Positions 15,861-60,042 of a stretch of DNA of 64,000 nt are shown here, piece by piece. The translations under genes and the position numbers were made by a program. The stretch comes from Nanobdellati archaeon. Its GTDB lineage: Archaea; Nanobdellota; Nanobdellia; CSSed11-243R1. Position 1 is the first letter of the stretch, and every line of letters starts with the position of its first letter. Below the pieces are notes generated by a model, which was not told where the DNA came from, searched no databases, and saw nothing but the letters and a program-made list of their open reading frames with translations. The DNA is taken from contig JALTFL010000004.1 in NCBI GenBank assembly GCA_027007025.1, positions 4,773 through 68,772 of the forward strand, read 5' to 3'.

Positions 15861-16125
15861 CTACTACTACTCTATAATACTTTGATAACCCTGCTATCTT
15901 ATTTTTCCTCGTAAACTCAATTATATCGCCGACTTTTGCTTCGAGCGCTTTTACAACAGGGTCCGACGGAAGAATTAAAGGCAACTGTCTCTTTGAGATG
16001 TTATATTTCTCCATAAATTCCCTTTGTTCATCCTCGGATAAAACTCTACATTCAGGAACTAATTTGCTCTTAAAAATATCTATTGGTTTTTCTTCCTTTG
16101 TAGATTTTTTAGATGCCATAATCAC
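15844..16125 (-). CDS. rpoH: DNA-directed RNA polymerase subunit H (Rpb5 homologue)
   Basis: Small protein with YNISKRQLP...VVKALEAKVGDIIEFTR; first gene of the rpoH-B-A cluster. Confidence 0.8.
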   Translation of the reverse strand: MIMASKKSTKEEKPIDIFKSKLVPECRVLSEDEQREFMEKYNISKRQLPLILPSDPVVKALEAKVGDIIEFTRKNKIAGLSKYYRVVVGGIRG

Positions 16126-16180
16126 AACTCTCCTTTATATTCCTCCAATGCTTTTCCCAAGAATTGAAAGTCAAAATGAA

Positions 16181-16294
16181 TGGGCCCGGGGGGATTCGAA
16201 CCCCTGGCCTCCTGGTTAAAAGCAACACCTTCAAATCCAATTTTATTAGAATGAATTTGAAACAGGCGCTCTGACCAGGCTGAGCTACGGGCCC
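16181..16294 (-). tRNA. tRNA-Lys (anticodon UUU) with a roughly 39-nt intron at a non-canonical position in the anticodon stem
   Basis: Minus strand reads GGGCCCG-TA-GCTC-AGCCTGGTCA-GAGC-G-CCTG[intron]G-CTTTTAA-CCAGG-AGGCC-AGGGG-TTCGAAT-CCCCC-CGGGCCC-A; acceptor stem 7 bp, canonical D-arm and T-loop; one A:C mismatch at the top of the T-stem. Confidence 0.6.
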
Positions 16295-16380
16295 AAGCTA
16301 AATTTTTAGAATTTGATAGAATATTCTGCATAAATTGTTCGTGAGAGGCATCAAGCATACTTTTGTGAGTTTTTTTCTCA

Positions 16381-16500
16381 TTTATATACCTTTCTATGCA
16401 CTTTCTCTTTCTTAGAAATAAAGAGAACCTGCGCTAAGAGAAAGAATTTCTTCCGGCAAAACCTTTCTTTGGAAAAGAAAGCTGCAGGAAAGAAAGAAGA
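16381..16500. repeat. Hairpin-repeat region (ttctcttt-cttagaaat-aaagagaa; gaacctgcgctaagagaaag; ctttcttt-ggaa-aagaaag)
   Basis: Inverted repeats with pyrimidine and purine arms; contains the shared 20-nt motif in inverted orientation. Confidence 0.5.
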
Positions 16501-16504
16501 AAAA

Positions 16505-17749
16505 CTAATTGTATTCAGGGTTAGTTACTCTGCCCATGAATAGAATTTCGCCCGTATTTTTGTCCTCGATTATAAACATGAATGGATGATTTGCCCTAAA
16601 AACAGGTTGATGCATCTGAACAGCTGTAATCCCAACCGATACTTCTGTCGCAGCTGCTGCTTCCGTTCCCTCTTCATTTACATCAATGTATGCTTGGTGG
16701 ATTACACTTTGTATTAACAATCCACCTTTCTTTGACATACCAGTTAAATCCGCACCATATGAAAATGGTGTTGGCATTCCCATTTCCTTCAAATCATTTG
16801 CCATAAAATATTTTGTTTCAAATTTAAACCTCGGCAGGTAAACCCTAACTTCCTCACTGTGAAGCTTGCTTGTCAAATCATTTATTTTTTCAACGCTCAA
16901 ACTGTTTTCAAAATCATCTAAACTTCTTGGCAAGAAAACAATCATCGACAAGTTTCCTTTATATGGCAGCTCTAAAACTTGCGTTTCATTTTTTTCATAG
17001 TATGGAAAATCTTCTTTTATATACATCATATCAACAGAAATGTTGCCATCTGGTGTGATAAAATCTTCTTTGTGGGTTGCATTTTTGTTAAACTGGTGGC
17101 TCCAGTTTCCCTTGAAGTAAATCGCATTCGTCAAGACAAGGCGCGTTGCGGAGTTTAGTACTCCTTTCGGAATCAAGTCCTTTATTTTTCCGTTTGTCTG
17201 CTGTTCAATCCAAGTGTTTATTATATTACGTGCAGATTCCTCATCCGCAAAATTTAGATTTGTAACTTTTCCGCCATAAAATTCTTCAATTATATCAAAG
17301 TAATGCTGTGAAAACGGAAAATCTTTCTGCGCCCAAAGGGCGTTTGCAGTTCGCAAGGTATAATTCTCATTTGGAGTGTTGAGTATGTTGTAAATATGCG
17401 CGAACGAAGTCCTCAGCTCGCTCGTATTTCCAGGAAAATAAAAGACATTTTTTATTTCCTTCGCAGTTCTTCCGCGGGCACCCTCATAAACCATAGCAAA
17501 AGCAGATGATATGCTGTATGGCGAAAAGAAAACATTCTGATTTTCAAACTCTGTTGAGTATTTCTTGTACAAATCAATTGCGAACTTGTTGTTTGCTTCC
17601 GCAACCGCATTGAATCCTTGCGAAGTCCAACCACTATCCTTTAAGATAATAGCGTCTTTTGAAGTGATATTCTTTGGAGTAGTTACGCAGCCAAACACAA
17701 TCGCAACAGCGAATATAACCACAATTCCCATCAAAAATTTCGAGTTCAT
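16505..17749 (-). CDS. Serpin (serine protease inhibitor), secreted with lipobox-like signal
   Basis: Hinge EEGTEAAAAT, C-terminal PFMFIIEDKNTGEILFMGRVTNP, N-terminal hydrophobic segment ending FGC. Confidence 0.85.
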   Translation of the reverse strand: MNSKFLMGIVVIFAVAIVFGCVTTPKNITSKDAIILKDSGWTSQGFNAVAEANNKFAIDLYKKYSTEFENQNVFFSPYSISSAFAMVYEGARGRTAKEIKNVFYFPGNTSELRTSFAHIYNILNTPNENYTLRTANALWAQKDFPFSQHYFDIIEEFYGGKVTNLNFADEESARNIINTWIEQQTNGKIKDLIPKGVLNSATRLVLTNAIYFKGNWSHQFNKNATHKEDFITPDGNISVDMMYIKEDFPYYEKNETQVLELPYKGNLSMIVFLPRSLDDFENSLSVEKINDLTSKLHSEEVRVYLPRFKFETKYFMANDLKEMGMPTPFSYGADLTGMSKKGGLLIQSVIHQAYIDVNEEGTEAAAATEVSVGITAVQMHQPVFRANHPFMFIIEDKNTGEILFMGRVTNPEYN

Positions 17750-17945
17750 ATATCTTGTAATACACTAGAATATATTAAGATTTCCATGACTTCAAAATCA
17801 ATAGAAATCATCTTCGTTTTCTGTTCCTATTCTTCTTCCTGCCGCGGCTCTTCTGTTTTATGATGTCTTTTCTCTTTAACCGCTTTCCTTTCCGCTTTCC
17901 CTTTCTTGATTTTGGCTGAATTGTTTTCATAAAAACACCTAGAGT

Positions 17946-17954: not shown

Positions 17955-18195
17955 CGCCCCGACCGGGACTTTCAAACACTCGCCAAGTTTCTCTCTTAGC
18001 GCAGGTTCTCTCTTTTCAAAGAGAGAAAGTGCTTTTGAACCCGGGTCCCCGGCTTGCTGCACTCCGGAATTTCTTCCGCTGGCGCTTCTTTCTAAGAAGA
18101 GCCGTTCGACAGACCGGGATCCTAGACCAACGTCCAACCACTTTCTTTCCGTGAACTCTTTCTTTGGAAAGAAAGGGTTCCTAGACTATCGGGGC
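17955..18195 (-). tRNA. tRNA-Asp (anticodon GUC) with three introns (D-loop, anticodon loop 37/38, T-loop)
   Basis: Acceptor GCCCCGA/TCGGGGC, discriminator G; exon pieces GTCTAG...TTGGTCTAGGAT-C-CCGGT-CTGTCG[48-nt intron]A-GCCGG-GGAC-CCGGG-TTCAAA[intron]T-CCCGG; introns carry hairpin repeats; D-loop exon boundaries uncertain. Confidence 0.6.
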
Positions 18196-18238: not shown

Positions 18239-18398
18239 TCCCAGCGGCCGGACTTTCGAAGCCCACCCTGAGTTTCTTTCCCTCAAGGCTCTCTTTTTGA
18301 AAGAAAGGCTTGGTCGAACCAGCAACCTCACGGTTTCAACGATGGATTTCTCCACCATACCACTACAGCCGTGCGCTCTACCATTGAGCTACGCTGGG
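18239..18398 (-). tRNA. tRNA-Tyr (anticodon GUA) with two introns (anticodon loop 37/38, about 28 nt; T-loop, about 60 nt)
   Basis: CCCAGCG-TA-GCTC-AATGGTA-GAGC-G-CACGG-CTGTAG[intron]A-CCGTG-AGGTT-GCTGG-TTCGA[intron]..-CCGGC-CGCTGGG-A; C1:G72 and A73 as expected for archaeal tRNA-Tyr; anticodon intron contains a GGTGGA-GAAA-TCCATC tetraloop hairpin. Confidence 0.65.
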
Positions 18399-18457: not shown

Positions 18458-19888
18458 TTACTCGACTTCTATCGCGAGCACGTTTGAGAATTCTTCAACC
18501 TTTTCTCCATTCGCATCCTTGAATTCTACTTTGGCAGGAGAGAACCCAATATGTCCTAAAACCTCAACAGAAGTCCTTATCTTATACGAAAGTACTCTTT
18601 CTTCCTTCGGTTTTATACTCTCAATTTCCCATGTTACATTTTTCTTCTTTCCTTTCTTCTTGATTTCGCCGGGTATTGTTCCATAATCCCTAACTTCCTT
18701 GACAAACGCTGGAAGAGGATCGTATACTTTTACGTGCCTTAACTCGTTGTTAGTCAAGTTCTTGACTTTTATCTGAATCTTCAAGTCCATGAATCCTGGG
18801 TATCTCTTGTAGTCTACAATCTCTTTTCTCACAGTAACTTTTCTAGTCATATACCAAAACGCTGCAATTACTGCAACAGCGGCAAAAGGAATTATGAGAA
18901 TTGGAATATAACTAATTGTATAAGTGACAACCACTTCCGATTGCGGGTTAACACTTAATTTCCAAATTATCTTTCCATTTTCAAAAGAATACCCTTCTGT
19001 CATGCTCGTCGCCAGTGATTTTTCTATCCCTGAAACAGAAGAAGAAACAACACAGTTTGCAACATCAGTTCCTGTGTTTCTTACATTTGCAACATACTTT
19101 TTCCCAAGTAAATTCACAGAAGTATGCTCATTAATTACACAGTTTGAATAACTTACAACGTTAGCAACAGCATTTCCCTTTGAAGTTACATTTCCTGCAA
19201 ATAATAAAGACACCGTAAATGTATGATTGCCTGGAGATGCAGATTCAGGAAGAGTTAAGTTATCTACTGTGATTGTAGTTGTTCCCTCGCTGATATTTTG
19301 ATTATCAACTCTATATGAAAATCCTTCAATATCAGATGTAATCTCCATTGGAACAACAACTGTCTCAACAGGGTTGTATACTTCAAAACTAATTGAAAAG
19401 GGATTCCGTGGATCCAACACCTGTGGATTAATTGTTACTTTATTTATGTTAACCGACTCAAATAATTTTGGAGACTTTAAGATTTCACCCTGCAAGTAAA
19501 TTGGAGGATTTAAGGAATTGCCTTTGTCATCAAAAACCAGCAGTTTAATAAGTATCTTTCCTGGCTTTTGGTCTGACTTGACTGTAAGTGCAACATGGAT
19601 CAGCTGCTCATCGCCAGGGTTTAACGTCAAAACGCTTGGTGTAATATCAGTCAATCCTGTGAAAAGAACATTCAAGCTTAGTTTAATTGGAGATGAACCA
19701 TCATTCCTTAGAGTAACATTATACTCTAATTTGTCTCCTGGCTTTGCCTTGTCGTTAATTACCCCAACACTGTATTTGATATTTGACAAATCGTCTGCCT
19801 TTGCGGCACTTAAAATGCTAAAAAACATTACTGCAAAAAGTAAAGATAACATTATTTTTTTGGATACCATGTGATAACTTAATTCCAA
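18458..19888 (-). CDS. Cell-surface protein: signal peptide, large extracellular region, C-proximal transmembrane anchor and lysine-rich cytoplasmic tail
   Basis: N-terminal hydrophobic signal, many N-x-S/T sequons, hydrophobic helix IPILIIPFAAVAVIAAFWYM followed by RK-rich segment. Confidence 0.6.
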   Translation of the reverse strand: MELSYHMVSKKIMLSLLFAVMFFSILSAAKADDLSNIKYSVGVINDKAKPGDKLEYNVTLRNDGSSPIKLSLNVLFTGLTDITPSVLTLNPGDEQLIHVALTVKSDQKPGKILIKLLVFDDKGNSLNPPIYLQGEILKSPKLFESVNINKVTINPQVLDPRNPFSISFEVYNPVETVVVPMEITSDIEGFSYRVDNQNISEGTTTITVDNLTLPESASPGNHTFTVSLLFAGNVTSKGNAVANVVSYSNCVINEHTSVNLLGKKYVANVRNTGTDVANCVVSSSVSGIEKSLATSMTEGYSFENGKIIWKLSVNPQSEVVVTYTISYIPILIIPFAAVAVIAAFWYMTRKVTVRKEIVDYKRYPGFMDLKIQIKVKNLTNNELRHVKVYDPLPAFVKEVRDYGTIPGEIKKKGKKKNVTWEIESIKPKEERVLSYKIRTSVEVLGHIGFSPAKVEFKDANGEKVEEFSNVLAIEVE

Positions 19889-22656: not shown

Positions 22657-22684
22657 GAAAAAGTGTTCGAGTCTTTTTGAAAAA

Positions 22685-22895
22685 GCCCGACAGAAAACTT
22701 TCTCTTAGTGCAGCTTCTCTTTTCTAAAGAGAAGATGCTTCTTTTGGTAAAGCTTTTCCAACACCCTTCTTAGAAAGAAGCATACGGAAGAAACCCCGCT
22801 TTCTTTCTCTTAGCCCATGTTCTCTTTCTTTTAAGAAGGAGAAAAATTTTTTCTTTTCCGGACGCGCTTTTCTTTTTTCTAAAAAGAAAAGGGTG
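22685..22895. repeat. Hairpin-repeat region 3' of tRNA-Pro, with a degenerate tRNA-3'-end-like segment
   Basis: Hairpins cttctctt-ttcta-aagagaag and cttttcttttt-tcta-aaaagaaaag; motif ctcttagtgcagcttctc; minus strand ends GTCGGGCTTTTT, resembling the tRNA-Asp 3' end. Confidence 0.5.
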
Positions 22896-22899
22896 TTAG

Positions 22900-23131
22900 T
22901 GGGGCCGCCGAGATTTGAATTCCCGGACCATGCCAACTTCTTTTCCGTTGACGCTTTTCTTTTAAGAAAAGGGTCACTCGGGACCACGTGCATTCCAGGG
23001 TTTCTTTGGTTGAGCTTTCTTTCCCAAAGAAAGATCACCCCAGGCACGCATCCTAGACCAAGTTGTCTGCTCTTTTCTCCCTCTTTTGGTAGAGCTTTTC
23101 TCGGGAGAAAAGGCCTCTAGACCACGGCCCC
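22900..23131 (-). tRNA. tRNA-Pro (anticodon GGG) with three introns (D-loop, anticodon loop 37/38, T-loop 54/55)
   Basis: Acceptor GGGGCCG/CGGCCCC, discriminator A; GTCTAG...TTGGTCTAGGAT-G-CGTGC-CTGGGG[intron]T-GCACG-TGGTC-CCGAG-T[intron]TCAAAT-CTCGG; introns contain hairpins ctttcttt-ccc-aaagaaag and cttttctc-ggg-agaaaag. Confidence 0.6.
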
Positions 23132-29795: not shown

Positions 29796-31349
29796 ATGGG
29801 ATTAGGAAGAGATTTAATTGGCGGAGGAAAAGGAATTACCCCTAAAAAGAATGACAATGCAAATAAAGAAATAAAAGAGGAAGCCGAAAAAGTTTTTTTA
29901 AATAATGAAGGCGGAAACCATCCAAACGTCAGTATGAGTGGATCAGAAATAATAAGATCCTCCGGTGCAATAATGTTCTTCATAGGTATCGCATTGGGAT
30001 TCTTTTTTGGATTACAATTTCTTGCAATAGCAATATTAGGTATAATTTTATTCATAATAGCCCCTTACATTCACATACCAAGTGGCGAAGCACTAATAAC
30101 AATATTCATAATTGGGGGAGTTGTATTAATAGGTGTTGTTTGGTTTTTTGGTGTCGGCGGCGGACAGGCAACCGCAGGAATGGGGAATAGAGTAGGTGAA
30201 AGCTTTAGTGGATTATTCAACAACTATTTATTTAGAAGTATTGGAAATATGTTAAAGAATCCATTTGGAATAGGTGTAACTGGCGGTAAATATGAAGAAC
30301 AAGAGCAAAAAACAAAAGCCCCTCCAAACCAAGCATTTTCAATTAGCATAAGAGGTAATGTAAATACTGCTAAGATGAATCAACATTCATTGACATTTAT
30401 AGTAACTATCAAAAATCTCGGGAGTAGTAAGATAAATGAATTACATCTTCAATTGAATTCCTTGACACCATATGACAATTGCTTAGTAATCCCTGATGGA
30501 AATGAACGAATAATAAAAAATATAGCTCCATTCTCAACAAGAGAAGTTGTATTCTCCGGCGGATGGATTGATTTGAATAAAGTCAAAGAAGTGATTATAG
30601 ATAATGTGTTAAAACCAAATACAAACACACCGATTTATATACGTGCAACAGCGTGGACATATTATCCAACAGCATCTAGATTAGCAGTAGAAAGAATGAA
30701 AAGCGATTTTGGAGTCTTGTTGATAAAAAATAATGCCCTCAGGCAAAAATCAACAGGAGCTATCTATAAATATGGTTCTGCAATGACGATTGACATGGAC
30801 ATAGGCCCACAACCAATCCTTGATAATTCCAATTCTGCTGCATTATTGTTAAAATGGCAAAATGTTGGCAATGGAAATATGAAATCAAATATGTCCCCCA
30901 TGTTATTTATTGTCACTCCAAAAGATTTCGGAAAGTGTATACCTGCAGGGTATATAGCTTACAAAGATGCAGAAAATTTACAATGTGACAAGACAAAAGA
31001 TAGCGCGGCAGGGTGTATCGTCTGCGACAACGAATTAGTTAACAGTTGGTGTGATAAAAATAGTAAAGTATGGACAGATATATCTAAATACACACCAGAC
31101 GCACTTTCCACATTAGAGTGGGTGTGTGATGTAGCTAAAAATGGTGAAAAACACGTCTGTGGCACAACTGATTTAACTATGGAATTTAATGTATTCACTT
31201 GCAGTTTAAATGTGCCTAAGATAAGCACAACGGAAGATATTGTTACAGATTATATAACAACTATAGCCACATATCCTTATGAAGTTAACTCTCAAACTGT
31301 AAAAGTTAATACGTTCTGCACAAGTGACCAAACAGGGTGTGGTGGATAA
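29796..31349 (+). CDS. Polytopic membrane protein with Cys-rich extracellular C-terminal domain
   Basis: Several hydrophobic helices in the first 130 aa; about 10 Cys in the C-terminal 120 aa. Confidence 0.5.
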   Translation: MGLGRDLIGGGKGITPKKNDNANKEIKEEAEKVFLNNEGGNHPNVSMSGSEIIRSSGAIMFFIGIALGFFFGLQFLAIAILGIILFIIAPYIHIPSGEALITIFIIGGVVLIGVVWFFGVGGGQATAGMGNRVGESFSGLFNNYLFRSIGNMLKNPFGIGVTGGKYEEQEQKTKAPPNQAFSISIRGNVNTAKMNQHSLTFIVTIKNLGSSKINELHLQLNSLTPYDNCLVIPDGNERIIKNIAPFSTREVVFSGGWIDLNKVKEVIIDNVLKPNTNTPIYIRATAWTYYPTASRLAVERMKSDFGVLLIKNNALRQKSTGAIYKYGSAMTIDMDIGPQPILDNSNSAALLLKWQNVGNGNMKSNMSPMLFIVTPKDFGKCIPAGYIAYKDAENLQCDKTKDSAAGCIVCDNELVNSWCDKNSKVWTDISKYTPDALSTLEWVCDVAKNGEKHVCGTTDLTMEFNVFTCSLNVPKISTTEDIVTDYITTIATYPYEVNSQTVKVNTFCTSDQTGCGG

Positions 31350-32527
31350 TGATGAAACATAAAGAATGGATATTGATTGTATTATTGTTTTTATTAGTCG
31401 TTTCTTTCGGATGTGTTGGCGAATCCAAACCAACAAATGAAACAAAGTTAGATGTGGAACAAGGAGTTGGTGTCGTTGGTAAGCTTAAATTTGACGAATT
31501 GCACCCCGGACTTGAAGGGTATATATCATTGGATGTAAGAAGCAACCTCGAAGGTGAAGGTGCTGGCAACGTTTTAATTGCGATAGATAATGTGAACCCC
31601 TTTAAAATAGTTGAATGTGGAGTAGTGCATAACAATGCAAATGACAATAGAAAATGTTCAGGACAACTTGACTTAGACAAAGGATTACCTGTAAGGGAAC
31701 ACAAAACAAGGCAACTTGTTCCTGGAAATGAAATAAATGTATTTTGGAGATTGAAAGCTCCAGGAAAAGATGAAATCTCTAATATCGCACTAAAACATCC
31801 ATTATATTATACTGTGTCATATGATTATAACGTAAAATTCCACCAAAACATTGTCTTTATGTCGCAAAATGAAATGATTAAGCGGAGACAAGCCGGTGAG
31901 GATTACATGATTTCAGGAGAATCAGGAAACACAGCAGGTGAGTTGAGATTTTCCGGCTCAACACAACAACCTATTATTTACTTCTTTGATTATGGTCCGC
32001 ATGAAAAAGAAGAATCTACTTTTTCATTCGCTACTCAATACCTCGTCGAAAACAAAGGAAAAGGATTTCCAATATCTGATGTTGTAGTCTTATTGGAATA
32101 CCCAAAAGATGGTATAGCTTTAGATGATAGTACACCTGAAGGAACACCAAACTATCAAGTCTATGGATGGCACAAATGGAATAATTGGGACGGTAAGATT
32201 TTATTGGATGATGGAAGTAGTATTGATTGCAGAACGGGCGATGAAAACAATCCACAAATAAACTGTAAGATATGGGTTGAGCAAACATTGGGAGATGACT
32301 TTAAAAAAATTGATACTACACATCTAATTGCAAAAGTCATTAAGAGAGAAAATTTTGTGGATTCATTTTCAATATACGCTCCATTTGTTATGACAGGTAA
32401 GGAAAGAACACACTTAAGGGATAGTAATATCCCCATGAAGATATACCCATTCAATGTCTATGCGATGTATAGATATTTCACAATTGGAAAAGATTATATT
32501 ACAGTATACCCTGTTAGGGGGATATAG
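31337..32527 (+). CDS. Secreted lipobox protein
   Basis: N-terminus LIVLLFLLVVSFGCVGES. Confidence 0.5.
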   Translation: MWWIMMKHKEWILIVLLFLLVVSFGCVGESKPTNETKLDVEQGVGVVGKLKFDELHPGLEGYISLDVRSNLEGEGAGNVLIAIDNVNPFKIVECGVVHNNANDNRKCSGQLDLDKGLPVREHKTRQLVPGNEINVFWRLKAPGKDEISNIALKHPLYYTVSYDYNVKFHQNIVFMSQNEMIKRRQAGEDYMISGESGNTAGELRFSGSTQQPIIYFFDYGPHEKEESTFSFATQYLVENKGKGFPISDVVVLLEYPKDGIALDDSTPEGTPNYQVYGWHKWNNWDGKILLDDGSSIDCRTGDENNPQINCKIWVEQTLGDDFKKIDTTHLIAKVIKRENFVDSFSIYAPFVMTGKERTHLRDSNIPMKIYPFNVYAMYRYFTIGKDYITVYPVRGI

Positions 32528-32540
32528 GAGGTAAGATAAA

Positions 32541-33398
32541 ATGAAAAAGGAAGGATTAATTATTTTAATTGCACTGTTTGCATTAGCATTCACATTTGGA
32601 TGTACAATGGGTGGTGAAAAGTCAAATAACACCAACACCGGCAATGGATATACCCTGAAAGTAAGTCCAAAAAATGTAATCTCGGAGGGAGTAATTACAA
32701 TAGATTTGAGATTAAAGAATATATTTGACAACGACATGAATAATGTCGAAGCAAGTATAAAGGATATACCTTCAACTTTCACGGGCACAGAAAAGGTAGA
32801 AGGTGTTACAATTGTAAAAGGTCAAGAATATCCGATGATATGGAGTATAACTGCACCAAGTACGGATTTAAAACAAAGCATAAATCCGAAAGTGGAAGTT
32901 TGCTTTGATTACACAACTAACTTTTATTTTGATACAGCATTAGTGCCAAGGGACAAGGCAACAGAAGAAGTTCAGGTGCAAAGCGGGTATTCGAACGGAC
33001 CTATCTCAGTAACACAAATGGGACTTGACAAAATATTCCTTAAAGAGGATGGAACTGGATTTATAACAGGTTCACTGGATATCAAAAATAACTGGCAGGG
33101 GCATATACAATCAATTAATAAAATAACAATAACCCCAAGTGGATTGACAGGCGGCATCAAATACGCAAGCTGTGGAGGGGACACCGTAACAACAATAACC
33201 CCAAGTACAGCAAACTGTGATATATTAAATAATAATTTGGCAATTGGAGATGGATTGATAACAACAATCAAATTAAGCACGACATCAGGCGGAAGCAGTA
33301 TATCCACTGAAAGGACAAATGGAGAAGTTGATTACACCTACTGTTATGATATACCATTAGGAACAATAACTGTCTGTCCTGTAGGACAAAGATGTTAG
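32541..33398 (+). CDS. Secreted lipobox protein, paralogue of 33408..34349
   Basis: N-terminus ALFALAFTFGCTMGG; shared CFDYTT...VP.D block with the downstream gene. Confidence 0.55.
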   Translation: MKKEGLIILIALFALAFTFGCTMGGEKSNNTNTGNGYTLKVSPKNVISEGVITIDLRLKNIFDNDMNNVEASIKDIPSTFTGTEKVEGVTIVKGQEYPMIWSITAPSTDLKQSINPKVEVCFDYTTNFYFDTALVPRDKATEEVQVQSGYSNGPISVTQMGLDKIFLKEDGTGFITGSLDIKNNWQGHIQSINKITITPSGLTGGIKYASCGGDTVTTITPSTANCDILNNNLAIGDGLITTIKLSTTSGGSSISTERTNGEVDYTYCYDIPLGTITVCPVGQRC

Positions 33399-33407
33399 GT
33401 GGATTAA

Positions 33408-34349
33408 ATGAATAAAAAAATTTTGTTTGCATTTTCTTTATTGTTTTTGTTAGCTCTCTCTCTTGGGTGTATAGGAGGAAATAAAAATAGTAATAACAAC
33501 GCCCAAGCTACAAGCGGAACATTAAATGCTACAATATTGATAAACGGTGTTCAAAGGAATAATATGGTACTAGTGTCTGAACAAAACGCACAAATTGGAT
33601 TAAAACTCAAGAACAATGGAAATGAACCAATTGAAAATGTTACTGGGCGTGTTCTCGGATGTCTTAATTCAAGCGATGCATTTACCGAAGAAGTTTTGCC
33701 ACATACTCAAAAGTATCTAAGCTGGGATGTTAAAGCCCCAGAACTTGGAGAAGGCGAGAAAATAAACTGTCCGACTACAATAAGAATCTGCTTTGATTAC
33801 ACCACGAAAGGATACACCGATTTGGTATTTGTACCCGAAGATTATAATGAAGCCCCCCCTTCACCAAGCTACACTGTTTCGGGCGACTACCTTGGTATAA
33901 ATTATAAATTTGGAGTCGCAAGAGTTATGAAACAAGGAGATAATGAGATGAATGGAGAGATAACAATTAATAACATAGGCGATGGATGGGTAGATTATAT
34001 AAATTACACGAATGGAGTGTCTTTGAATACACTAAGAAAAGTAAATATAACCCTTATAGGGGATAACATTGCAATATCCAAATTCGGTGGATTGGATCAA
34101 AGTGAATTAAGTAATTGGTTGAGCAACGACAAAAAAACACTAATACTCACAGCGGACAACACAAAAGAGGGGTATAGTTATCTTACAAAACTTGTGCAGG
34201 GCAAAAGTTTATTCTTGAAACTCAACATAAATGTAACCAACCCAAACAGCTTCCAAGATGGAACAAAGATATACCAGCTTAGAACAGAAATAAATTATGG
34301 TTATTGTATTGACATAGCAACATTAGACACAACATTGAGTGGAAGGTAA
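33408..34349 (+). CDS. Secreted lipobox protein, paralogue of 32541..33398
   Basis: N-terminus LLFLLALSLGCIGGN; ICFDYTTKGYTDLVFVPED block. Confidence 0.55.
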   Translation: MNKKILFAFSLLFLLALSLGCIGGNKNSNNNAQATSGTLNATILINGVQRNNMVLVSEQNAQIGLKLKNNGNEPIENVTGRVLGCLNSSDAFTEEVLPHTQKYLSWDVKAPELGEGEKINCPTTIRICFDYTTKGYTDLVFVPEDYNEAPPSPSYTVSGDYLGINYKFGVARVMKQGDNEMNGEITINNIGDGWVDYINYTNGVSLNTLRKVNITLIGDNIAISKFGGLDQSELSNWLSNDKKTLILTADNTKEGYSYLTKLVQGKSLFLKLNINVTNPNSFQDGTKIYQLRTEINYGYCIDIATLDTTLSGR

Positions 34350-45742: not shown

Positions 45743-46501
45743 ATGAATAAAAAAATATTTTTGGCAATTGCATTTGTAGCAGTCATATTTGTATTTGGAT
45801 GTGTAGGTGCAAAGAAGATTCCATTAAGAGAAAATAAGTCTAATATGGTGGTTGGTAACAACACTGCGAATGTTGTTGTAAATACACCTGTTGTCAAGGA
45901 TATAGATATAAATTATTTCACATTCCACCCGAACATACTAAAAATTTCTCCTGGAACAACCGTTGTCTGGAAGAACCAGGACGATGATGTTATTTATGAA
46001 GTCGTAAGCGGACACATTGAAGGATACAAGGAATTCCAAACAAATTTGTTTGACAGCGGAGAAATGGGTTATGGGAACAGCTTCAATTACACTTTTGACA
46101 AAGAAGGAGATTACCCATTCTACCTGAAAGGACATGTCAACATACAGGGGATTATAATTGTCGGAAATGGAAATGACACCCCAATTGAAATAAGAAGTCC
46201 TCATTTTGTCGGCTCGACGCCTCCACACAACAAAACACTTGATTCCCTCAATGAGATTTGGATAACATTCAACGCACAGATAAGCAATCAAAGCACAATC
46301 ACGGTGTATGATGTTAAAAACCACAAAATCGTTGAGCCAACTGAAAGCGGAGTTGATATATCCAATAACTTGAGGTTATTCGCAAAGTTTAATTCTCTTG
46401 AACCGTCCGAATACAAAGTGGAATATTATGAAGTAATAGGCAATGAGAGGGCGTATGGGCAGTTTTTCTTCGACATTGCGAAAAATTTAAAAACAGATTA
46501 G
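45743..46501 (+). CDS. Secreted lipobox protein with cupredoxin-like beta-sandwich region
   Basis: N-terminus AVIFVFGCVGAKK; TFHPNILKISPGTTVVW...GHVNIQGIIIV resembles a cupredoxin fold but has no Cys ligand. Confidence 0.4.
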   Translation: MNKKIFLAIAFVAVIFVFGCVGAKKIPLRENKSNMVVGNNTANVVVNTPVVKDIDINYFTFHPNILKISPGTTVVWKNQDDDVIYEVVSGHIEGYKEFQTNLFDSGEMGYGNSFNYTFDKEGDYPFYLKGHVNIQGIIIVGNGNDTPIEIRSPHFVGSTPPHNKTLDSLNEIWITFNAQISNQSTITVYDVKNHKIVEPTESGVDISNNLRLFAKFNSLEPSEYKVEYYEVIGNERAYGQFFFDIAKNLKTD

Positions 46502-58681: not shown

Positions 58682-58707
58682 CCCACCTTCTCTTTAGAAA
58701 AGAGAAG

Positions 58708-60042
58708 TTGGACCAAGAGAAATGTGATATGATGAGTGAAAATATTCCATACGATGCAATTGAAAAAAAAGATTCTGAGATTTTCAAGTACTTAAATCTT
58801 GAAGTTGAAAGACAAAAGGAAGTTCTCAACATGATTCCTTCCGAGAATTATGTCTCAAAGGCTGTGCTTGAAGCCAGCGGAAGTATCCTAACAAACAAAT
58901 ACGCTGAAGGTTATCCAGGAAAAAGATATTACCAGGGCATGTCAAATGTCGACGAGATTGAAAAGATTGCAATCGAAAGGGCGAAAAAACTTTTCGGGGC
59001 AGAGCACGCAAATGTCCAGCCATACTCTGGAAGCCCGGCGAACGCGGCAATTTATTACGCTCTTTTGAAACCCGGAGACAAGATAATGGGAATGCGACTC
59101 GACATGGGCGGACACCTTACGCACGGGCACAACGTCAATTTCTCGGCGCGTTTTTACAAGTCAACACCTTATGTTCTCGACAAGGAAACCCAAATGCTTG
59201 ATATGGACGAAATAAGAAAACTTGCAATCAGAGAAAAACCGAAATTGATAATTTCTGGTTATACAGCATATCCGCGAAAAATTCCATTCAAGGAGTTTCA
59301 TGAGATAGCTGAAGAAGTCGGCGCGTATTCAATGGCGGACATTTCCCACATATCTGGATTGATTGTCGGAGGCGTTCATCCTTCACCTTTTCCATTCACG
59401 GATGTTGTCATGACAACAACACACAAGACGCTTAGAGGTCCACGCGGGGCAATTATTCTCTCAAAAAAAGAGGACAGACTCGCGAATGTTGAAGGGCTTG
59501 ACGAAAAGAAGGCAAAAAGGGCAAAGAATCTCGCCTTGAAAATTGACAGGGCTGTTTTTCCCGGACTGCAGGGAGGACCACACATGAACGTAATCGCCGC
59601 GAAGGCAGTAGCCTTTGAGGAGGCAATGACGCCGGAGTTCAAGGATTACGCGAAACAGGTTGTAACAAACGCAAAAGTGCTTGCGGAAACTCTTCTTGAC
59701 AACGGCGTAAAACTTGTTACTGGCGGAACTGACAACCATTTGATTTTAATTGACTTGACACCTATTGGCGTCGGGATTGGAAAGGAAGTCGCTGTCGCCC
59801 TTGAAAACGCGGGCATAGTCGCGAACATGAACACAATTCCATACGACCCGTCAACGCCGTTCAAGCCGTCGGGATTGAGAATCGGGACTCCGCTTTTGAC
59901 AACACGCGGAATGAAAGAGGAAGAAATGCAAATAATCGGCGAGTGGATTTCAAGAATAATCCTCAACAGAAAAGACGCCGCGCTCCAAAAGAAAACAAAA
60001 GAAGAAGTCAAAGCGCTCTGCGAGAAATTTCCTTTTTACTAA
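58708..60042 (+). CDS. glyA: Serine hydroxymethyltransferase
   Basis: PLP-lysine motif TTTHKTLRGPRG. Confidence 0.9.
   Translation: MDQEKCDMMSENIPYDAIEKKDSEIFKYLNLEVERQKEVLNMIPSENYVSKAVLEASGSILTNKYAEGYPGKRYYQGMSNVDEIEKIAIERAKKLFGAEHANVQPYSGSPANAAIYYALLKPGDKIMGMRLDMGGHLTHGHNVNFSARFYKSTPYVLDKETQMLDMDEIRKLAIREKPKLIISGYTAYPRKIPFKEFHEIAEEVGAYSMADISHISGLIVGGVHPSPFPFTDVVMTTTHKTLRGPRGAIILSKKEDRLANVEGLDEKKAKRAKNLALKIDRAVFPGLQGGPHMNVIAAKAVAFEEAMTPEFKDYAKQVVTNAKVLAETLLDNGVKLVTGGTDNHLILIDLTPIGVGIGKEVAVALENAGIVANMNTIPYDPSTPFKPSGLRIGTPLLTTRGMKEEEMQIIGEWISRIILNRKDAALQKKTKEEVKALCEKFPFY

Follow-up and report, generated by a model that had tools for sequence, protein, structure and literature searches.

A 64,000-nucleotide stretch of contig JALTFL010000004.1 from a Nanobdellati archaeon (hereafter the window) encodes a serpin of 414 residues on its minus strand, and we consider, with a probability of roughly 0.75, that it is a functional inhibitory serpin that is exported, tethered outside the cell membrane and vertically inherited within a narrow DPANN clade labelled 'Nanoarchaeota'. 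Family, fold, hinge and loop length support its prediction as an inhibitory-type serpin, and a lipobox-like export and anchor signal supports its probable tethering at the cell surface. For its inheritance, the evidence comes from five genomes, namely that of the window, L001 (the same as L005, 'Nanoarchaeota archaeon AUK188'), L002, L003 and L167. The features of the gene itself are as follows.

16505..17749, minus strand: serpin gene, 414 residues (open reading frame (ORF), Pfam PF00079, serpin matches in the PDB, AlphaFold2 model and Foldseek)
17687..17749, minus strand: N-terminal export signal, MNSK followed by FLMGIVVIFAVAIVF and the lipobox-like V-F-G-C, with Cys21 at 17687..17689
16610..16675, minus strand: reactive-centre loop from P17 to P5' (E359..H380), by count from P17
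17771..17778, minus strand: TATA-like box TTAATATA, at -29 to -22 from the serpin ATG
16398..16504, no strand assigned: 3' flank of the serpin, with a T5/pyrimidine run and two copies of a three-tract module (16398-16448 and 16454-16495), antisense to the serpin

A full-length serpin with an inhibitory-type hinge

The protein starts with MNSKFLMGIVVIFAVAIVFGC, and the Pfam profile PF00079 covers its residues 51-411 along the entire profile (positions 1-370 of 370, E=1.3e-124). In a sequence search of the PDB, the best-matching solved structures were SERPINB3/B4, conserpin and leukocyte elastase inhibitor (LEI), with approximately 40% identity and E-values between 3.6e-79 and 1e-76. Moreover, an AlphaFold2 model built with 17 relatives reached a mean predicted local distance difference test score (pLDDT) of 88 and a predicted template-modelling score (pTM) of 0.81, and a Foldseek search with this model retrieved cleaved LEI, MENT and antichymotrypsin (E=1e-39, target TM 0.92-0.93, root-mean-square deviation 1.5-1.6 Å). 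At the C-terminus, the residues FRANHPFMFII, read from the sequence, fit the PROSITE serpin signature. The full-length serpin with canonical hinge and C-terminal signature that a preliminary description of this DNA had proposed from its letters is, therefore, confirmed.

The hinge EEGTEAAAAT (residues 359-368) does not vary among the 17 aligned relatives and fits the inhibitory consensus ExGTEAAAA quoted in PMC8233489, with Glu at P17, Gly at P15, Thr or Ser at P14 and small residues from P12 to P9. In addition, the distance between the hinge and the FxxxHPF motif is the same as in SERPINB3, i.e., the loop has the standard length. A count of 17 residues from P17 leads to Thr375 as P1 (codon 16625..16627) and Ala376 as P1'. 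Thr occupies this counted P1 in all seven close orthologues, in which P2 is Ile, Val or Ala and P1' is Ala, Ser or Gly, and in 61 of the 118 top relatives with a recognisable hinge. As the P2-P1 pair is Ile-Thr and neither Lys nor Arg occurs in the loop, the targets are predicted to be elastase-like or subtilisin-like proteases, and not trypsin-like ones.

With regard to expression, the TATA-like box upstream of the serpin, which has an AT-rich counterpart at equal distance from the ATG in L001, L002 and L003, suggests that the gene is transcribed from a promoter of its own as an independent unit, into an mRNA with little or no leader. The T5/pyrimidine run begins immediately after the stop codon, and the 3' flank is probably a terminator or another 3'-end structure. 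An identical serpin protein is also found on a 528-kb metagenomic scaffold and in the metagenome-assembled genome (MAG) GCA_015522785.1, while the closest other serpins (P0002-P0007) share 65-74% identity with it. Overall, the gene is genuine, and its product is a typical representative of a large, unstudied family.

Genomic slot and origin of the serpin gene

The order tRNA-Asp, small basic ORF, serpin, tRNA-Lys, rpoH, rpoB', rpoB'' is the same in the window, L001, L003 and L167, and in L002 three additional genes lie between the serpin and tRNA-Lys. In L001 the upstream side agrees as well, with a DUF11-like protein, a ferredoxin and an M17 peptidase. The preliminary description had located the serpin between tRNA-Lys and the tRNA-Asp/Tyr pair and directly after the RNA polymerase operon. 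The tRNA identities were correct, but the interval from tRNA-Tyr to tRNA-Lys holds, besides tRNA-Asp and the serpin, an ORF of 40 residues between these two; moreover, all of these genes are on the minus strand, with the serpin upstream of rpoH-rpoB'-rpoB''-rpoA' and not behind them.

Within this shared slot, the serpins of L001-L003 have diverged to 65-73% identity, against 84-89% for RpoB'. When compared to 51 window ORFs, the serpin gene is not atypical in GC content (z=0.04), GC at third codon positions (z=0.16) or codon usage (z=0.25). No integrase or transposase domain was detected in the scanned window ORFs of at least 120 residues, and, as for att-like partial tRNA copies, no 11-mer of mature tRNA-Lys, tRNA-Asp or tRNA-Tyr was found near the serpin, with three distant chance 11-mers in the window. 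In a neighbour-joining tree, the serpins of the window, L002, L003 and AUK188 form one clade on a long stem, outside which Archaea are interleaved with Bacteria. Because orthologues occupy the syntenic slot in four other genomes, the suggestion in the preliminary description that the serpin was acquired by integration at a tRNA gene is not supported.

The idea of a horizontal origin survives in an older form, to which we give almost even odds: the gene may have been transferred or relocated into the slot in the ancestor of the clade and inherited vertically ever since, a scenario compatible with the functional part of our interpretation. None of 80 RpoB' relatives at 77% identity or below has a serpin in the available upstream flank (the full 8 kb in 35 of the 80), and among the 79 other serpin loci compared (GTDB species representatives, approximately 45-55% identity) not one lies near rpoB. 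L085 (RpoB' 77%) retains tRNA-Lys, its leader and rpoH, with other genes directly upstream; in L086 (RpoB' 71%), where tRNA-Lys also stands beside rpoH, 5.4 kb of unrelated genes, including a tRNA-synthetase-like ORF, separate it from tRNA-Asp. Furthermore, the window clade has no outside relative above approximately 51% identity, whereas elsewhere in the family serpins from different domains are 76-83% identical (e.g., 77% for a Patescibacteria/Aenigmatarchaeota pair and 83% for a Woesearchaeota/Methanosarcinales pair). However, loss or rearrangement in other lineages would give the same pattern, as the slot is generally variable. In addition, the tree carries no bootstrap values and mis-binned MAGs could inflate the mixing of domains, so that this mixing is suggestive only.

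Comparison of the L085 and L086 flanks indicates that the tRNA/rpoH frame is ancestral and the slot within it variable, with the serpin present there only in a tight clade. The serpin was already at this slot in the ancestor shared by at least five sampled genomes, and the slot is prone to rearrangement. Spence et al. attributed the likeness of prokaryotic 'hub' serpins to clade B to conservation, and not to transfer from animals (PMC8233489), and our analysis is consistent with that view. As a separate observation, the serpins of L028, L034 and L037, labelled Bacteroidetes, Methanosarcinales and Methanophagales, are mutually 95% identical, which reflects either very recent cross-domain transfer or contamination during MAG binning.

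Predicted N-terminal export signal and surface anchor

We then focused our attention on the N-terminus, which consists of the basic n-region MNSK, 15 hydrophobic residues, V-F-G-C and a disordered stretch of approximately 20 residues; the AlphaFold2 model has a helix at residues 3-19 and disorder at 20-42. The G-C pair that closes the hydrophobic stretch is kept in seven of seven close orthologues, while the flanking residues vary. Lipobox-like N-termini are present in 82 of the 120 top relatives, and the canonical L-[SA]-G-C is found in many more distant ones. When measured against the lipobox [LVI] at -3, [ASTVI] at -2, [GAS] at -1 and Cys at +1 (as in PMC12462473), the serpin fits with V(-3), G(-1) and C(+1) and deviates with F(-2). 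Thus, the lipobox-like signal that the preliminary description had read as a surface anchor is backed by its conserved Cys and by the relatives, but does not satisfy the strict lipobox at -2.

A Lys followed by a hydrophobic stretch and [F/L]-G-C is found on five window proteins, i.e., the serpin and those beginning at 31337, 32541, 33408 and 45743, as well as on one L086 protein, which suggests that a lipoprotein signal with Phe or Leu at -2 is typical of the lineage. Lipobox proteins and the lipidation enzyme AliA have been predicted to be prevalent in DPANN (PMC12462473). Beyond the serpin, this signal occurs at two window loci:

31337..34349, plus strand: three consecutive genes for proteins of 396, 285 and 313 residues, all without matches in Pfam and NCBIfam
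45743..46501, plus strand: gene for a cupredoxin-like protein

The N-terminus could also work as an uncleaved transmembrane signal anchor, or be removed by type-I cleavage with release of the protein, Cys21 carrying no lipid in either case. The Phe or Leu at -2, outside the canonical set, would be in agreement with this, and so would the hydrophobic N-termini without Cys in 33 of the 120 relatives, mostly bacteria of the candidate phyla radiation (CPR), whose serpins are presumably still tethered. Nevertheless, strict conservation of the Cys at the end of the hydrophobic stretch amid varying flanks, the recurrence of [F/L]-G-C at this point in four unrelated window proteins and the textbook L-[SA]-G-C of many relatives all argue against a signal anchor, which we consider unlikely.

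Predicted mode of action and alternative explanations

Following the interpretation of the serpin as a tethered inhibitor, the n-region, hydrophobic stretch and V-F-G-C would direct the protein to Sec export. Cys21 would then be lipid-modified by an archaeal lipoprotein pathway of the AliA type, with the disordered linker of approximately 20 residues holding the body of the protein at the surface. Homology and the model indicate a serpin fold with an invariant small-residue hinge and a loop able to insert as strand s4A. A target serine protease would cut Thr375-Ala376 or Ile374-Thr375 and, upon loop insertion, be trapped as an acyl-enzyme. More speculatively, the surface proteins of an ultra-small, host-attached cell may in this way be shielded from proteases of the host or of neighbours.

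A few observations weigh against this interpretation. At position -2 the orthologues have Phe or Leu, off the bacterial consensus of Ala, Ser, Thr, Val or Ile. The HMMER gapped alignment to SERPINB3 would move P1 from Thr375, as counted, to Ile374, so that P1 is uncertain by one residue. Moreover, the window ORFs of at least 120 residues include no candidate target protease. In the AlphaFold2 model the reactive loop is already inserted as a strand, in a latent-like state. AlphaFold2 often draws serpin loops pre-inserted, and the model, uninformative on the native state, establishes no more than that insertion of the loop is feasible. Finally, the tree that unites the serpins of the clade is the neighbour-joining tree without bootstrap described above, and the taxon labels of its MAGs may carry binning errors.

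With regard to the biological role, the serpin might instead control a secreted or membrane protease of its own cell, as Tk-serpin does with Tk-subtilisin, and not serve in defence against foreign proteases. Tk-serpin and Pnserpin inhibit subtilisin and chymotrypsin-like proteases of the endogenous type (cited in PMC8233489), and Ile-Thr at P2-P1 would suit subtilisin-like enzymes. However, neither the scanned window ORFs nor any of the syntenic loci yielded a serine protease gene linked to the serpin. Small DPANN genomes, moreover, are not known to encode many secreted proteases, and we regard an endogenous regulator as rather improbable.

A non-inhibitory serpin, acting as chaperone, carrier or storage protein, would be in line with the preference of AlphaFold2 for the relaxed state, but is highly improbable given the canonical, invariant inhibitory hinge with small residues at P12-P9 and the standard loop length. 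Even less can be said for recent arrival of the serpin on an integrative element aimed at the flanking tRNA genes, since, although tRNA genes, including tRNA-Asp(GUC), are known attB sites of archaeal viruses and plasmids (PMC4090602) and an inverted repeat of approximately 50 nucleotides (nt) brackets the serpin, five genomes with diverged serpins share the syntenic slot, the composition is native, neither an integrase in the scanned ORFs nor a partial tRNA duplicate was found, and the inverted repeat, simply a pair of common modules, is not shared by relatives.

Intron-rich tRNA genes around the serpin

The preliminary description had called the flanking tRNA genes intron-containing, which is correct, and they are far more interrupted than it had stated, with one intron in tRNA-Lys, three in tRNA-Asp and two in tRNA-Tyr. 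A fourth gene of this type, tRNA-Pro(GGG), lies further upstream of the serpin, and is followed by at least five free-standing repeat units.

16181..16294, minus strand: tRNA-Lys(UUU), with one intron of 39 nt (16224..16262) at 30/31 in the anticodon stem; Rfam score 49.5 bits
17955..18195, minus strand: tRNA-Asp(GUC), with introns 18130..18180 (D-loop), 18055..18106 (37/38) and 17969..18033 (59/60)
18239..18398, minus strand: tRNA-Tyr(GUA), with introns 18335..18362 (37/38) and 18253..18312 (T-loop)
22900..23131, minus strand: tRNA-Pro(GGG), with introns 23063..23116 (D-loop), 22993..23037 (37/38) and 22920..22976 (53/54)

ARAGORN found no tRNA in the raw 64-kb window. At gathering score, Rfam recognised tRNA-Lys alone, with an insertion of 42 nt, and it gave a sub-threshold partial match of 28.4 bits at 18307..18392, which corresponds to tRNA-Tyr; tRNA-Pro(GGG) was missed by both programs. 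These genes were missed because their introns are multiple and non-canonical. After in-silico splicing, ARAGORN called Lys(ttt), Asp(gtc), Tyr(gta) and Pro(ggg), while the precursors gave no call. Intron boundaries were set by the length of the anticodon loop and by bulge-helix-bulge (BHB) geometry. Across the nine introns of the four genes, the 4-bp central helix is perfect in eight, including the three of tRNA-Asp (4/4 each), and reaches 3/4 in the first intron of tRNA-Tyr, while the flanking BHB helices are present in strict or relaxed form. The tRNA-Lys intron has the geometry H4/h4/h'10, the second tRNA-Tyr intron forms a perfect hBHBh' (H4/h5/h'6), and the junctions of tRNA-Pro(GGG) are BHB-compatible. 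The splicing endonuclease EndA was not identified among the scanned window ORFs of at least 120 residues.

Two further candidates in this region were discarded: positions 16398-16500 do not represent a split or permuted tRNA fragment, as they hold no exon-like sequence and no 11-mers in common with mature tRNAs, and an ORF of 78 residues at 16122..16358 is not a real gene, as it runs through tRNA-Lys.

tRNA-Lys is conserved in L001-L003 and L167. The T-arm introns of tRNA-Asp differ among relatives, with none in L002, a single one in L001 (at 53/54) and two in L003. Moreover, the first intron of the window tRNA-Pro is 93% identical to the first tRNA-Asp intron of L001 (L001:5577-5630), and its third intron is 90% identical to tRNA-Asp intron 3a of L003 (L003:297-355), whereas the first tRNA-Asp intron of the window shares only about 70% identity with the introns at the same position in L002 and L003. 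These comparisons point to recent gain, loss or transposition of tRNA introns in the clade. A protective role against integration has been proposed for tRNA introns at the anticodon loop and T-arm (PMC4090602), which speaks against the reasoning of the preliminary description.

A three-tract repeat module in introns and 3' flanks

Seven of the nine tRNA introns contain a repeat module, which is also present in two copies in the 3' flank of the serpin and in the 3' regions of the genes for EF-1a and S7. It consists of a pyrimidine tract, a short loop, a complementary purine tract, a spacer of 7-8 nt and another purine tract, mirror-symmetric to the preceding one and not its direct copy. The sites are as follows.

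16398-16495, 17969-18180, 18253-18312, 22660-23116, 195-240, 2766-2810 and 58687-58730 in the window: modules, found also in L001-L003 and L167

Between the purine tracts, the mirror match exceeds the direct one in 16 modules and falls short of it in two, a count that overstates the support, as orthologous copies are not independent; in the window alone the figures are seven and none. The match often extends over the full stem, with a mean of 3.5 nt in the shuffled control, and the three tracts co-vary between module copies. Hairpins of homopyrimidine and homopurine arms are enriched about 10-fold in the window (11 against approximately one in shuffles), with clusters in the flanks of the serpin and across 22660-23131. 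The modules were recovered by a hairpin-based scan, a strict regular expression yielding almost nothing, and their signature occurs 21 times in approximately 95 kb of the window and L001-L003, against twice in about 1.73 Mb of other genomes. The module is thus clade-specific, and its order of tracts is that of a class II intrastrand triplex, for which it is predicted to be capable.

The inverted repeat around the serpin pairs the 3'-flank module with the third intron of tRNA-Asp, and the direct repeats around the gene are likewise intron-module sequences. The inverted repeat was rejected as the boundary of a composite transposon or cassette, as its arms are ordinary module copies and their arrangement is not conserved: the T-loop intron of tRNA-Asp is missing in L002, the 3' modules are missing in L003, and the copies in L001 are different ones.

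Tentatively, and with more doubt than confidence, the flanks may record a clade-specific mobile element, i.e., a triplex-capable module of 45-65 nt that has spread in two forms, as BHB-bounded introns within tRNA genes (D-loop, anticodon loop and T-arm) and free-standing at the 3' ends of genes. If so, the serpin mRNA could carry a pyrimidine-motif triple helix (U.A-U / C+.G-C) that terminates transcription or stabilises the transcript. Moreover, gain of tRNA introns in DPANN would then have an identifiable agent of defined structure, and the variable, tRNA-flanked slot would be a product of the destabilising effect of the module.

Other neighbours of the serpin

Three further features adjoin the serpin or the tRNA genes.

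17808..17930, minus strand: highly basic ORF of 40 residues, MKTIQPKSRKGKRKGKRLKRKDIIKQKSRGRKKNRNRKRR, between tRNA-Asp and the serpin in all five genomes
16295..16392, minus strand: TATATAAAT box and conserved leader of approximately 70 nt upstream of tRNA-Lys, identified by nucleotide conservation
18458..19888, minus strand: exported protein of 476 residues with DUF11/CARDB-like Ig repeats, the upstream neighbour of the serpin

In L001, L002, L003 and L167 the basic ORF keeps its residues while its Arg and Gly codons differ; it has no match in Pfam or NCBIfam, and may encode a small ribosomal-type or nucleic-acid-binding protein. The stretch upstream of tRNA-Lys is conserved in the window, L001, L002, L003 and L167 and recognisable in part in L085, and may represent either a tRNA leader of exceptional length or a small RNA. 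The protein of 476 residues has a hydrophobic segment in its C-terminal region and weak S-layer-like matches, and is syntenic with the serpin in L001 and L002; it may represent a surface-layer or adhesin component. Elsewhere, the window encodes core machinery, including EF-1a, S12, S7, EF-2, NusA, RNA polymerase, primase, PCNA, RFC, MCM, TBP, thermosome and IleRS, a housekeeping setting that does not favour recent integration either.

Significance and comparison with known systems

With this serpin, one more member joins a very large, uncharacterised group of prokaryotic serpins tethered at the surface, which is common to ultra-small DPANN archaea, CPR bacteria and their neighbours, and the literature examined contained nothing relevant on serpins in DPANN or CPR organisms. 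A gene beside tRNAs is, as a rule of thumb, taken to mark an island, and the locus clearly contradicts this: its tRNA frame is ancestral, the very positions that integrases use are interrupted in its tRNA genes, and the cargo is inherited vertically. In addition, nine introns in four genes, unseen by ARAGORN and mostly by Rfam, illustrate why DPANN tRNA sets look incomplete, and the intron module in the flanks is more unusual than the serpin itself.

The module has the same one-strand order of tracts as the class II intrastrand triplex motifs PIT and BoxC (Holder et al. 2015, PMC4666352), in which the second purine tract is the reverse-Hoogsteen domain and which are likewise multi-copy, intergenic and tied to rearranged loci. 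The known examples of these motifs are bacterial and G/C-rich or A/T-rich, and tRNA is unmentioned in PMC4666352. Unlike them, the window module, whose triplex is a prediction, has loops of 7-8 nt, often places the second purine tract in the loop of a second hairpin and occurs in the form of spliceable tRNA introns. As for the introns themselves, the near-identical copies in different tRNA genes parallel the multi-intron tRNAs and intron transposition of Thermoproteales (PMC4090602) and the disrupted tRNA genes of DPANN (PMC5829648), both reports noting that standard tRNA finders miss such genes. In contrast to those introns, the ones in the window are three-tract repeats that also stand free between genes, which is not described in the literature examined.

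Among serpins, those of clade B (SERPINB3/B4 and LEI) and conserpin are the best sequence matches, rank among the best fold matches and have the same length of reactive-centre loop, but they are eukaryotic or engineered, intracellular and without signal peptide. Tk-serpin from Thermococcus kodakarensis and Pnserpin from Pyrobaculum neutrophilum are also archaeal, belong to the 'hub' type and share the ExGTEAAAA hinge, their targets being subtilisin-like and chymotrypsin-like proteases (PMC8233489). However, these two come from hyperthermophilic Euryarchaeota and Crenarchaeota, whereas the window serpin comes from a DPANN genome of 38% GC; and while intracellular housekeeping has been suggested for hub serpins in PMC8233489, the window serpin bears an export and lipobox-like signal.

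The closest analogue is miropin of Tannerella forsythia, a prokaryotic inhibitory serpin that is a surface lipoprotein and likewise has Thr at P1 by count (bioRxiv 10.1101/2025.09.05.674453). The loops read -Val-Lys-Thr|Ser- in miropin (P1 Thr369) and -Gly-Ile-Thr|Ala- in the window serpin. Miropin differs in being bacterial, in residing in a diderm outer membrane through Lgt/Lsp-type lipidation, and in its P2 Lys, which directs it to trypsin, plasmin and gingipain, whereas the loop of the window serpin has no basic residue. Miropin has been proposed to protect surface proteins in a protease-rich community (bioRxiv 10.1101/2025.09.05.674453), and a lipid-anchored, miropin-like inhibitor in the window archaeon would, if our interpretation holds, represent a concrete and testable factor of host interaction near protease-secreting hosts.

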